DNA from: Dyadobacter sp.
GTDB taxonomy: Bacteria; Bacteroidota; Bacteroidia; Cytophagales; Spirosomataceae
DNA length: 64,000 bases
NCBI RefSeq assembly: GCF_039919315.1
Contig: NZ_JBDSFX010000053.1
Location: 1,120-65,119 of the forward strand
Reading direction: 5' to 3'
Position numbers and translations under genes: made by a program. Below are positions 15,666 to 18,613 of the stretch, piece by piece; position 1 is the stretch's first letter; the number at the start of each line of letters is the position of its first letter. The notes under the pieces were generated by a model that was not told the DNA's origin, did not search any database, and saw only the letters and a list, made by a program, of their open reading frames with translations.

Positions 15666-15821
15666 CATGGCTTGATGTTGGTGTTTCATTCTTCGTTTCG
15701 TACCGGTGATCATAGAAATCGTCGGTTATCGGGGTAAGTGGTATGATTTTATACCAAGGTTATGAGCTGCCTATGCTATCTTGTGCTCGGACAAATCTCA
15801 CTCAATTTAACCTACTAACTT

Positions 15822-16574
15822 ATGAAGAATGTTGGAAACGCTACTCAGGACCAGGTATTCAAGGACGAAATCATGAAAGTGTCCGATTTTAAATTCGGAA
15901 CAACAGTGGTAAACGTCTTTGACGACATGGTGAGCAGATCAGTACCGTTTTACAATGAAACCCAGCGGATGCTGGCGGAAATTGCGGCTGATCATGTGAA
16001 TGAAGGAAGTTTCGTGTACGATTTGGGTTGCTCTACAGGAACCACGCTCATTGAGGTGGACAAGCTGATACCCTCCGACATCCGGTTTATCGGCATCGAC
16101 GAGTCAAAGGAAATGTTGGACAAATGTGATCTGAAGTTGCAAGAAGCTGGTTTTGCCCGCCCTTACGATCTCATACCCGCAGACTTGCATCAGGAAGAAC
16201 TTCCGATCCACAATGCCTCGGTAGTGATTTTGTGCCTGACACTTCAGTTTGTACGTCCGCTTTACCGGGAGCGGCTGCTGCGTAACATTTACAATGGTCT
16301 GAATCCTGGCGGCGTGCTGCTGCTCGTGGAAAAAGTGCTGGCCGAAAGCAGTGTTTTTAATCGTGATTTTATCAAATACTATTACAACTACAAACGCCGC
16401 AATCATTACAGCGAAATGGAGATCTCGCAGAAACGCGAGGCGCTTGAAAATGTACTGATTCCCTATAAGTTATCTGAAAATATGCTCCTGTTGAAAGAAA
16501 CAGGCTTCGCCGATTGCGAGGTATTTTTCAAATGGTATAATTTTTCAGGAATGATAGCTTACAAAAAATCATGA
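15822..16574 (+). CDS. cmoA: Carboxy-S-adenosyl-L-methionine synthase (CmoA family)
   Basis: FDDMVSRSVPFY, YDLGCSTG, LTLQFV, EISQKREALENVL (keeps the Arg equivalent to the Cx-SAM-determining Arg of E. coli CmoA), FFKWYNF. Confidence 0.85.
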   Translation: MKNVGNATQDQVFKDEIMKVSDFKFGTTVVNVFDDMVSRSVPFYNETQRMLAEIAADHVNEGSFVYDLGCSTGTTLIEVDKLIPSDIRFIGIDESKEMLDKCDLKLQEAGFARPYDLIPADLHQEELPIHNASVVILCLTLQFVRPLYRERLLRNIYNGLNPGGVLLLVEKVLAESSVFNRDFIKYYYNYKRRNHYSEMEISQKREALENVLIPYKLSENMLLLKETGFADCEVFFKWYNFSGMIAYKKS

Positions 16575-17299
16575 TCACGATCGGTAATTTCTTTTTCACA
16601 TATAGGAACATCTTATTCATAGTCCTGTATCTGTTGCTTTTTATACCCTCTCCAATGCTTTTCAGTCCGGAAGTATTTGGCGAGAAATATTATCTTTTTC
16701 CAATCATCCTGGGTTTGGCGGTCACTTTTGCCGGTGAGCTTATCCGTGGCATTACCATTGGGCTGGCCTACATTATCCGGGGTGGCAAGGACAGGAAAGT
16801 GTACGCCGAAAAGCTGGTGACTGAGGGTATTTTCAGGCATTGCCGGAACCCGCTTTATGTAGGGAATATACTCATGCTGCTCGGTGTAGGAATTTTGTCC
16901 AACTCGTTGATTTATGTAGCGATCGTGATGCCTTTGTTCCTTTTTATTTATCAAACCATCGTGCTGGCAGAGGAAAATTTCCTGCGCAACAAGTTTGGCG
17001 TGGATTTTGACAACTACTGCAAACGCGTAAATCGCTGGCTGATCAATTTTAATGGTCTTTCGGAAACATTCAGCGGTATGCAGTTCAATTACAAACGCTG
17101 GATCTTGAAAGAGTATAATACATTGCTGGTCTGGCTGATAGGAATTTTTGCTCTATTGCTGTTCACGTACCCGCAGGTCGTACCGGACGTAAATTCCAGA
17201 AATACTTTGTTTGGCGTGATCGTGGTTTTCTTGCTGTTGGTATACGGCTATATCAAATATCTAAAAAAGTCAGGGAAGATGACCGATAGCATGGCCTGA
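16571..17299 (+). CDS. ICMT/PEMT-family integral membrane methyltransferase (LmtA-like N-terminus)
   Basis: GNFFFTYRN, GELIR, LVTEGIFRHCRNPLYVGN, EENFLRNKFG..F..Y...V.RW; ATGA overlap with cmoA. Confidence 0.8.
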   Translation: MITIGNFFFTYRNILFIVLYLLLFIPSPMLFSPEVFGEKYYLFPIILGLAVTFAGELIRGITIGLAYIIRGGKDRKVYAEKLVTEGIFRHCRNPLYVGNILMLLGVGILSNSLIYVAIVMPLFLFIYQTIVLAEENFLRNKFGVDFDNYCKRVNRWLINFNGLSETFSGMQFNYKRWILKEYNTLLVWLIGIFALLLFTYPQVVPDVNSRNTLFGVIVVFLLLVYGYIKYLKKSGKMTDSMA

Positions 17300-17335: not shown

Positions 17336-18613
17336 ATGAAAATCGTAATCATTGGAGGAGGATTCGCCGGTGTAAACCTGGCGCTTGATCTTGCAAAAAG
17401 CAGCCAGTTCGAGGTGACGCTGGTGGATAAAAATAATTATAATTTTTTCCCGCCGCTGATTTACCAGGTAGCTACGGCCTTCCTAGAACCTTCCAGTATC
17501 AGTTATCCGTTCCGCAAGCTTTTTTCGGGAAAAGAAAACCTTCACTTCCGTTTGGGAGAATTATTGAAGGTAATTCCAGGCGAAAATAAGATTGTGCTGG
17601 ATAATGGTGAAATGGATTACGATTTTTTGGTTTTTGCAACCGGGGCGGAGACCAATTTCTTTGGCATGGAGAATGTGAAAAGGAACGCCACACCCATGAA
17701 AACCCTGGAAGACGCGATTGGCATGCGGAACAAGATGCTCATGCAAATGGAAAAAGCCACGCTGACCGAAGATCCTGCGGAAGTTAAAAAACTGCTGACC
17801 GTCGTCATTGCCGGAGGCGGGCCAACAGGAGTGGAGATATCAGGCATGTTTGCAGAAATGCGCAATGGTATCCTGCGGAAAGAGTACCCCGAGCTGGCGG
17901 GTAAAGGAAGTGAAATTTACCTCGTGGACGGTGGCGACGCATTGCTATCACCCATGAGCGTCAAATCACAGAAGGATACCTACGAAGCGCTTCGCAAGCT
18001 GGGTGTCAAGATAAAGCTGAATACGCACGTAGCCGATTTTGTGGATGATAAAGTGTTCTTCTCGGAAGGGGACTCTATTGAAAGCAAAACGCTGATATGG
18101 GCGGCCGGCGTCACAGGCAAAGTATTTGAAGGTATTCCGCCGGAAGCGTACGGACGAGGAAGAAGGCTGATCGTAGACGCGTATAACAAAGTAGCTGGCT
18201 CTTACAACATTTACGCAATAGGCGATGCCAGCCTACAGACGACGGATGCAAATTTCCCGAATGGCCATCCGCAGGTGGCACAGGTTGCCATCCAGCAGGG
18301 CAAAAACCTGGCAAGGAATTTCGAGCTCGTGGCCGAGCATTTACCATTGAAGCCATTTGCTTACCACGATAAAGGTTCGATGGCTATCATTGGACGCGCC
18401 AAAGCCGTGGTCGATATGCCTTCGCCGAAGCTGCATTTCAAAGGAGTTATTGCCTGGCTTGCCTGGTTGTTCATTCACCTTGTTTCGCTGATCAACCACC
18501 GCAACAGGATGAAGACGCTGTATAACTGGATGATCGCTTATTTCACAAAGGATCAGTCGCTCAGGATGATCATTAAGCCGTCGGTCACCCAGGAGAAAGT
18601 CGAATCGGTTTAA
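17336..18613 (+). CDS. ndh: Type II NADH dehydrogenase
   Basis: IVIIGGGFAG, FPPLIYQVATA, IAGGGPTGVE, AIGDA, AQVAIQQG, DKGSMAIIGR. Confidence 0.92.
   Translation: MKIVIIGGGFAGVNLALDLAKSSQFEVTLVDKNNYNFFPPLIYQVATAFLEPSSISYPFRKLFSGKENLHFRLGELLKVIPGENKIVLDNGEMDYDFLVFATGAETNFFGMENVKRNATPMKTLEDAIGMRNKMLMQMEKATLTEDPAEVKKLLTVVIAGGGPTGVEISGMFAEMRNGILRKEYPELAGKGSEIYLVDGGDALLSPMSVKSQKDTYEALRKLGVKIKLNTHVADFVDDKVFFSEGDSIESKTLIWAAGVTGKVFEGIPPEAYGRGRRLIVDAYNKVAGSYNIYAIGDASLQTTDANFPNGHPQVAQVAIQQGKNLARNFELVAEHLPLKPFAYHDKGSMAIIGRAKAVVDMPSPKLHFKGVIAWLAWLFIHLVSLINHRNRMKTLYNWMIAYFTKDQSLRMIIKPSVTQEKVESV

Follow-up and report, generated by a model that had tools for sequence, protein, structure and literature searches.

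The cmoA–mMT unit and its products

We analyzed a two-gene unit in a 64,000-nucleotide (nt) stretch of the genome of Dyadobacter sp. (contig NZ_JBDSFX010000053.1; hereafter, the window), in which the gene for a carboxy-S-adenosylmethionine (Cx-SAM) synthase, CmoA, overlaps the gene for a membrane protein related to the isoprenylcysteine carboxyl methyltransferases (ICMT). We refer to the latter protein, the ICMT-fold membrane enzyme encoded directly downstream of cmoA, by the working name mMT. The genome holding the window measures 7.76 Mb and is 99.97% complete, and its assignment to Dyadobacter fits homologs of 90% identity from that genus. A preliminary description of this DNA had reported a CmoA with its arginine motif and an ATGA overlap with an ICMT/PEMT-family membrane protein, and the two reading frames, the overlap, and the motif were all recovered here. 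The features of the unit, in coordinates of the window and all on the plus strand, are as follows:

15666..15821, plus strand: upstream intergenic gap of 156 nt, between the DUF4833 gene (end 15665) and cmoA
15822..16574, plus strand: cmoA, Cx-SAM synthase, 250 amino acids (TIGR00740, 245.8 bits; phmmer to 4gek and 1im8)
16434..16436, plus strand: codon of CmoA Arg205, ISQKR motif, aligned to E. coli CmoA Arg199
16571..16574, plus strand: ATGA overlap of the cmoA stop and the mMT start, read from the sequence; translational coupling
16571..17299, plus strand: mMT, 242 amino acids, putative ICMT/PEMT-fold integral membrane transferase (PF04191, AlphaFold, Foldseek, linkage)
16583..16609, plus strand: N-terminal GNFFFTYRN (G5, N6, F9, R12), common to LmtA-type proteins
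16745..16747, plus strand: R59, aligned with beetle ICMT Arg173
16769..16789, plus strand: YIIRGGK loop, family defining, with R70 at 16778-16780
16838..16867, plus strand: HCRNPLYVGN cofactor-binding motif, aligned to 4a2n and 5vg9 (RHPxY in canonical ICMT, RNP here)
16970..16975, plus strand: E134-E135, the EE motif of the ICMT cofactor pocket, from the alignment
17027..17038, plus strand: VNRW with R155, cytoplasmic segment past the EE helix

The promoter of the two-gene unit presumably sits in 15666..15821; a scan for sigma-70-type promoters and terminators gave counts no different from those of shuffled sequences, with a consensus that is unsuited to this phylum.

Judged by its sequence, the first gene of the pair appears to encode a bona fide CmoA. 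Its product scores well above the cutoff of the NCBIfam equivalog model TIGR00740 (193.3 bits), with residues 9-248 matching model positions 1-239, and aligns end to end with the CmoA of E. coli (4gek) and YecO of H. influenzae (1im8; phmmer E values of ∼1e-47). The equivalents of E. coli CmoA Tyr39, Asp62, Asp89, Asp117, Glu164, and Arg199 are conserved, the last of which salt-bridges the carboxylate of Cx-SAM (PMC3663124). At one further position, Cys132 of the window protein (in "VILCLTLQF," codon 16215-16217) replaces the Asn132 found in E. coli and H. influenzae, which in the E. coli enzyme hydrogen-bonds the methionine moiety of the cofactor. The Dyadobacter genome encodes exactly one true CmoA as well as its own chorismate mutase, the enzyme whose product is prephenate. 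CmoA makes Cx-SAM from SAM, with prephenate as the carboxyl donor (PMC10491745).

The second gene encodes a protein that is predicted to have the ICMT fold and carries the cofactor motifs of the ICMT/PEMT enzymes. mMT matches Pfam PEMT (PF04191) at 45.9 bits against a cutoff of 25, with a weak match to ICMT (PF04140), and its profile matches the structures 4a2n, 5vg9, and 5v7p. Its AlphaFold model, built from a 41-sequence alignment (pLDDT 84.8, pTM 0.80), retrieved Ma-ICMT (4a2n) with a Foldseek probability of 1.00 and the beetle Tc-ICMT with 0.98. Conservation was scored over 118 full-length cluster representatives of the family and compared with 20 unlinked paralogs. Within the family, the cofactor residues R92, N93, P94, and Y96 are 98 to 100% conserved, the EE pair 97 to 98%, and R155, which also occurs in short ICMT-like paralogs but not in the LmtA-like ones, 91%. 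The positive-inside charge pattern places the loops at residues 64-94 and 135-177, which bear the cofactor motifs, in the cytoplasm, so that the catalytic loops of mMT are predicted to lie on the side of the membrane where Cx-SAM is made.

Two arginines of mMT stand out as candidates for reading charged groups. The first, R59 (97% conserved), aligns with Arg173 of Tc-ICMT, one of the two arginines—Arg173 and Arg246—that position the acceptor carboxylate in that enzyme (PMC8358657), and is thus a candidate binder of an anionic group on the acceptor. The second, R70, lies in a loop of the form Y[ILVM]xRGG that was found in 102 of the 118 representatives, across phyla, and in none of the 20 unlinked paralogs; its position is occupied by threonine in LmtA-like and short paralogs. 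We regard R70 as a candidate reader of the extra carboxylate of Cx-SAM, by analogy to CmoB, CmoX, and CmoA, which all recognize this carboxylate through a lysine or an arginine. As the fold of mMT differs from those of CmoB (Lys91/Arg315) and CmoX (Arg), there is no homologous carboxylate-reading position to compare. The stretch from Y67 through R70 to G72 is the sole low-confidence part of the AlphaFold model, as expected where a loop orders upon ligand binding.

The best NCBIfam model for mMT is that of LmtA (TIGR04571), which it matches at 70.4 bits, far under the cutoff of 325, over residues 5-218 (model positions 11-220 of 252). LmtA is the lipid A 1-phosphate methyltransferase (PMC4402001). 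The preliminary description had pointed to a likeness between the two N termini, and this likeness stands, as G5, N6, F9, and R12 of mMT are shared with the GNxLFRxR-type N-terminal helix of LmtA-like proteins. Orthology with LmtA does not stand, because a separate paralog elsewhere in the same genome (G000:C92:66111-66803; L100:2965-3720, minus strand) matches the LmtA model over its full length at 220 bits. Proteins of this LmtA-like family (∼245 to 250 amino acids, "TSGRNT...VRHPLY...YYERIMxAEE") occur in ∼17 of 401 genomes that we drew evenly from the phylum Bacteroidota and never adjoin cmoA. From these comparisons, mMT appears to be a divergent, sister-type relative of LmtA. The LmtA-like paralog scores below the model cutoff; it may represent, in Bacteroidota, a SAM-dependent methyltransferase of the lipid A phosphate.

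Linkage to CmoA, absence of CmoB, and natural fusions

The link between the two genes extends far beyond the window. A scan of named genomes, with one genome per species, returned at least 479 loci with relatives of mMT, and in the best 80 of these (63 to 83% identity), which we examined, cmoA lies directly upstream on the same strand in every case. These loci belong to Dyadobacter, Hymenobacter, Rufibacter, Pedobacter, Arcticibacter, Parapedobacter, Niastella, Terrimonas, and Chryseobacterium populi, and take in many metagenome-assembled genomes (MAGs) of Chitinophagaceae and Sphingobacteriaceae. The junctions mostly range from an overlap (−1) to +10 nt, the largest gap being 607 nt. Clustering of the flanking open reading frames at 85 Bacteroidota loci revealed no third conserved gene beside the pair, and the loci from other phyla gave the same result, which argues that cmoA and mMT form a stand-alone module.

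The same association is seen in the 401-genome sample, in which CmoA scores above its cutoff in 13 genomes. Six of these, from four genera, encode an mMT ortholog directly downstream (54 to 100% identity, 241 to 524 bits) and no CmoB, and the other seven carry cmoB directly adjoining cmoA and no mMT ortholog. The reverse search with mMT returned only the same six genomes at 241 bits or more, the next match reaching 85.7 bits at 35% identity, so that no genome of the sample has an mMT ortholog without CmoA. The probability of finding all six orthologs within the 13 CmoA genomes by chance is ∼3e-10, and that of the six-to-seven split with respect to cmoB is ∼6e-4, although both figures overstate the independence of the genomes because kinship among them is ignored. 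Thus, mMT strictly co-occurs with CmoA and excludes cmoB in this sample. The preliminary description, which had noted that the window lacks cmoB, had proposed searching the genome for this gene and analyzing the co-occurrence of the pair. Neither the window nor the genome contains cmoB: TIGR00452, which has a cutoff of 275 bits, is matched at 26.5 bits at best. The linkage proved to be conserved and, within the phylum sample, mutually exclusive with cmoB.

The phylogeny of CmoA agrees with this partition. In a maximum-likelihood tree of 9 cmoB-linked CmoAs (7 from the phylum plus those of E. coli and H. influenzae) and 85 mMT-linked ones, the former are united with 100/100 support, and a branch of length 4.1 lies between them and the mMT-linked proteins. 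Branching among the latter mostly tracks taxonomy, and the tree does not settle whether they are themselves monophyletic. The window CmoA shares 49 to 58% identity with the linked CmoAs of rhizobia and Gemmatirosa, compared to 32 to 40% with cmoB-linked CmoAs of its own phylum. By these sequence comparisons, the mMT-linked CmoAs appear to be a lineage apart from the cmoB-linked ones. Pairwise distances of CmoA and mMT correlate across 83 loci with r = 0.70, a value consistent with co-inheritance, even though shared phylogeny alone gives a correlation too. Three genomes (G299, G242, and G005; loci L119, L120, and L121, respectively) encode CmoA-like proteins that score 101 to 164 bits, below the cutoff, and lack the SQKR arginine motif; no mMT ortholog adjoins them, and they belong to a different methyltransferase family.

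Outside the Bacteroidota, a tblastn search of annotated plasmids recovered 18 records from Ensifer, Rhizobium, and Sinorhizobium and one from Gemmatirosa. At all five plasmid loci examined, cmoA is directly upstream of mMT; both records that come with a gene table annotate the upstream gene as CmoA, and the two CmoAs that were scored, those of Ensifer canadensis and Gemmatirosa, exceed the cutoff. An exhaustive hidden Markov model search of 1.84 billion cluster representatives (clusters at 50% identity) expanded the family to 224 clusters at E values of at most 1e-30, of which the top 150 all score at least 157 bits, compared to 76 to 111 bits for the unlinked paralogs of the phylum. We then inspected the contigs of ten representatives, nine of which encode an above-cutoff CmoA (213 to 267 bits) adjoining mMT; the tenth is a 1.5-kb contig whose partial neighboring gene allows no identification. 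These records place the pair in Alphaproteobacteria and Gemmatimonadota, in Planctomycetota through a Phycisphaerales MAG, and in Eisenbacteria through one contig; outside the phylum, CmoA is the neighbor wherever the adjoining gene could be read.

Among these proteins are three natural fusions (P0194, P0253, and P0258), in which an mMT with all the signature motifs continues into a C-terminal type II chorismate mutase (CM_2, 56 to 59 bits against a cutoff of 27). They belong to different 50%-identity clusters and come from a soil metagenome, the Phycisphaerales MAG, and the Eisenbacteria contig; one of them was assembled independently in two data sets, and in all three cmoA directly follows the fusion gene. 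A fusion of mMT to the supplier of the co-substrate of CmoA is hard to explain unless mMT consumes the product of CmoA. The fusions further imply that the C terminus of mMT is cytoplasmic, in agreement with the positive-inside pattern. Other fusions add different domains: one (P0237; L138:6001-7329) carries an extra transmembrane segment and an OmpA-like peptidoglycan-binding domain, P0131, from a cluster of six members, has a second ICMT-like domain, and P0174 has a DUF2141 domain.

The immediate surroundings of the pair in the window are a feature of its genus. Genes for DUF4833, PfkB, HAD, and NDH-2 proteins are common neighbors only at ∼16 to 18 Dyadobacter loci and are shared neither by other Dyadobacter nor by other taxa. 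In the window, the NDH-2 (type II NADH dehydrogenase) gene (17336-18613) begins 36 nt past mMT. At 10 Dyadobacter loci (e.g., L012:2601-3239), a gene for a 212-amino-acid membrane protein lies between the DUF4833 gene and cmoA, a place where the window has only the 156-nt gap. Dyadobacter sp. BHUBP1 carries two cmoA–mMT pairs on different contigs (L026 and L029), the second of which (72% identity) groups with that of Dyadobacter sp. BE34. At another locus (L138:4341-9684), cmoA is directly preceded by a gene of the inositol-monophosphatase family, and a gene for a PfkB kinase follows 1.4 kb downstream of the partner gene. This arrangement recalls the HAD-PfkB-DUF4833-cmoA order of the window and may point to a theme of inositol phosphates.

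Proposed reaction, acceptor, and alternative explanations

We consider it likely that mMT transfers carboxymethyl groups from Cx-SAM to an acceptor in the membrane, working at the cytoplasmic face. In the proposed reaction, CmoA would turn SAM and prephenate into Cx-SAM in the cytoplasm, and mMT, through its cytoplasm-facing cofactor pocket, would bind Cx-SAM in place of SAM and move the –CH2–COO– group onto an anionic oxygen, of a phosphate or a carboxylate, of a membrane-embedded acceptor at the inner leaflet. We infer the use of Cx-SAM by mMT, the role proposed above for R70, and the nature of the acceptor. The preliminary description had proposed just such a Cx-SAM-dependent carboxymethylation of a lipid, a proposal that gains support from the linkage, the exclusion of cmoB, the recurrence of the pair in other phyla, and the chorismate mutase fusions, and that we retain as a proposal. 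tRNA is very unlikely to be the acceptor, since the partner of CmoA is an integral membrane protein of the ICMT fold.

As for what is modified, the likeliest acceptor would be lipid A, the substrate of LmtA, or else the phosphate of some other envelope lipid, yielding an O-carboxymethyl (glycolyl) ester; we advance this more specific assignment, in which the phosphate is modified at the cytoplasmic face, only tentatively. It leads among the candidates on account of the LmtA-type architecture and of gene contexts in other phyla. In Ensifer canadensis, cmoA and mMT are followed by genes for a response regulator, a histidine kinase, and a PAP2 phosphatase, and in the Phycisphaerales MAG, the mMT–chorismate mutase fusion and cmoA are followed by an ArnT-like PMT_2 gene. 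A third locus (L133) places genes for a PAP2-GT2 fusion and a PMT_2 protein divergently from a response regulator, a PhoQ-like kinase, cmoA, and mMT, and a fourth (L136) has a two-component system divergent from co-directional PMT, GT2, LAB_N, cmoA, and mMT genes. A set of ArnT-like PMT_2, ArnC-like, GT2, LAB_N, PAP2, and PhoQ-like genes is typical of a regulated modification of lipid A or of polyprenyl-phosphate-linked envelope components. The preliminary description had named two acceptors, the lipid A phosphate and the phosphorylated head group of a sphingolipid made by the adjacent locus. The former is favored by these contexts; a conserved link to sphingolipids is ruled out, since the DUF4833/PfkB/HAD synteny is confined to Dyadobacter, and such a link is at most a genus-specific hint.

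Several observations weigh against the proposed function or its proposed acceptor. The flanking genes in Bacteroidota give no clue to the acceptor, and the envelope contexts come from just 4 of the ∼13 loci sampled outside the phylum, a small and nonrandom sample. Related genomes are counted in the co-occurrence figures, and the six carriers of the pair represent four genera. A carboxymethylated lipid or lipid A is not reported in the literature that we searched. Lastly, Arg246 of Tc-ICMT aligns to the nonbasic Q128/T129/I130 of mMT, so that only one of the two acceptor arginines of ICMT is present, and the acceptor chemistry may therefore differ from that of a carboxylate or phosphate. The comparison at R59 and Arg246 suggests, and does not prove, an anionic oxygen as the acceptor nucleophile. 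The missing arginine is not a trait specific to mMT, as short unlinked paralogs have the same "YQxIV" form.

Among the alternatives, the one that survives best keeps the use of Cx-SAM and changes the acceptor: in place of an envelope lipid, mMT would modify a hydrophobic metabolite of small size, a carrier of the polyprenyl phosphate type, or one end of a protein anchored in the membrane. The uninformative Bacteroidota contexts leave room for it, ICMT itself acts on proteins, ArnT/ArnC-type genes work with polyprenyl-phosphate carriers, and both the fusion with an OmpA-like domain and one locus with a FabA-like gene would fit. Yet the closest full-length characterized model is that of LmtA, a lipid A phosphate methyltransferase; the PAP2, ArnT-like, LAB_N, and PhoQ-like neighbors are typical of lipid A remodeling; and the stand-alone state of the pair in many genomes argues for an acceptor from core metabolism. 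On balance, we find this alternative unlikely.

Two further explanations would deny mMT the use of Cx-SAM, and each has, in our judgment, a small probability. Under the first, mMT is an ordinary SAM-dependent methyltransferase that is merely encoded next to CmoA, and the latter feeds an unrecognized soluble transferase, e.g., a tRNA ho5U34 carboxymethyltransferase other than CmoB. The characterized enzymes of the ICMT family are indeed all SAM users (PMC11069360, PMC4402001), and the tRNA U34 hydroxylase TrhO is encoded in all six pair-carrying genomes, so that ho5U34 may exist in their tRNA. However, TrhO is generic, being present in 211 of the 401 genomes irrespective of CmoA, which most of these genomes lack; its presence carries no weight for a role in tRNA modification, and we dropped it as uninformative. 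Moreover, mMT orthologs never occur without CmoA, nor the mMT-linked CmoA lineage without mMT; the genes are coupled and overlapping; chorismate mutase fusions arose in three lineages; and no CmoB- or TglF-like protein was found in the Dyadobacter genome. The counts of TrhO, set beside 13 genomes with CmoA and 7 with CmoB, raise a separate question about the fate of ho5U34 in most aerobic Bacteroidota, where it could be kept as ho5U or methylated to mo5U.

The second explanation, to which we give no better chance, casts mMT in the part of CmoM, as a SAM-dependent enzyme that methyl-esterifies a carboxymethyl group placed by another Cx-SAM enzyme. It has a precedent in E. coli, where cmo5U is further methylated by CmoM (PMC6599085), and draws on the fact that ICMT and RhlM are carboxyl O-methyltransferases and that the anion-positioning R59 is conserved. 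Such a scheme requires a third enzyme, though, and neither the 85 Bacteroidota loci nor those of other phyla conserve a third gene; the genome lacks a CmoB-like transferase, and the family-specific loop with R70 is left unexplained. Least probable of all is that the mMT-linked CmoAs make another SAM derivative or are plain methyltransferases, so that the group transferred is not a carboxymethyl: the long branch from the cmoB-linked proteins and the cysteine at the Asn132 position would fit this, but the score above the equivalog cutoff, the conserved equivalents of all six E. coli residues listed above, and the chorismate mutase fusions and operon links, which argue for prephenate as co-substrate, speak against it.

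Significance and comparison with known systems

Cx-SAM is a rare cofactor with four known classes of acceptor—tRNA, the thiol of a ribosomally synthesized and posttranslationally modified peptide (RiPP), peptidyl-cytidylate, and phage DNA—all served by soluble transferases of the Rossmann fold. If our proposal is correct, mMT would be the first integral-membrane, ICMT-fold enzyme to use Cx-SAM, and membrane lipids would join the substrates of this chemistry. It would also explain why CmoB is absent from about half of the sampled CmoA-positive genomes of the phylum and from CmoA-positive genomes of other phyla, and it would give a function to at least 150 to 220 clusters (at 50% identity) now labeled "isoprenylcysteine carboxyl methyltransferase family protein"; annotation of the adjoining genes as tRNA-modifying CmoA would then mislead. 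Should the acceptor be lipid A or another envelope lipid, the pair would represent a new kind of envelope remodeling in abundant soil and rhizosphere bacteria. The resulting phosphoglycolyl-type head group would define a kind of envelope lipid modification that has gone unrecognized, and its carriers would include soil Bacteroidota, rhizobia, Gemmatimonadota, Planctomycetota, and others. The modification would be under PhoQ-like two-component control in some lineages and could provide a carboxylate handle for further decoration.

Two known enzyme families resemble mMT in structure. LmtA of Leptospira interrogans has the GNxxFxxR motif and as many helices as mMT, and in both proteins the pocket faces the cytoplasm. 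The target that LmtA alkylates is an anionic oxygen in the phosphate of a membrane lipid. Its cofactor is SAM, and its gene shows no linkage to cmoA; the YIxRGG loop is present in mMT, which has no counterpart of the arginine in the LmtA-like "YYER." The ICMT/Ste14 and RhlM enzymes share the fold, the RxPxY...EE motifs, and an arginine on the helix before the pocket (Arg173 in Tc-ICMT, R59 in mMT). In contrast to mMT, which has no equivalent of Arg246, they are SAM users without a CmoA, with prenylcysteine and rhamnolipid as their acceptors.

The genomic arrangement, on the other hand, is that of the Cx-SAM systems. CmoA and CmoB, which form cmo5U34 in E. coli tRNA, are likewise an adjacent two-gene and often coupled cascade, in which CmoA makes Cx-SAM and its partner transfers the carboxymethyl group; here, an ICMT-fold protein integral to the membrane stands in the place of CmoB, which is soluble and has the Rossmann fold. 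In TglE/TglF, MccS/MccB-CTD, and the phage pair CmoA/CmoX, a CmoA homolog stands beside a dedicated transferase for a new acceptor, namely, a peptide thiol, a peptidyl-cytidylate, and a DNA cytosine, respectively (PMC10491745, PMC12783734). These transferases are coupled genomically to their CmoA homologs as mMT is (80/80 named loci and 6/6 genomes in the phylum sample), but TglF, MccB-CTD, and CmoX have soluble class I methyltransferase folds, with no membrane enzyme and no lipid acceptor among them. In reviews, the enzymes named as users of Cx-SAM are CmoB, TglF, MccB-CTD, and CmoX, each of them soluble (PMC10491745). A full-text search of the literature, which did not cover the original paper on the discovery of Cx-SAM, returned nothing on CmoA together with ICMT, Ste14, LmtA, or PEMT, and the preliminary description, which knew of no described example of this chemistry, is borne out in that we found no published description either. 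Taken together, these comparisons point to a so far undescribed two-enzyme Cx-SAM cascade, one that follows the known logic of a CmoA paired with a dedicated transferase and would extend it to a fold and an acceptor class that are new to this chemistry.

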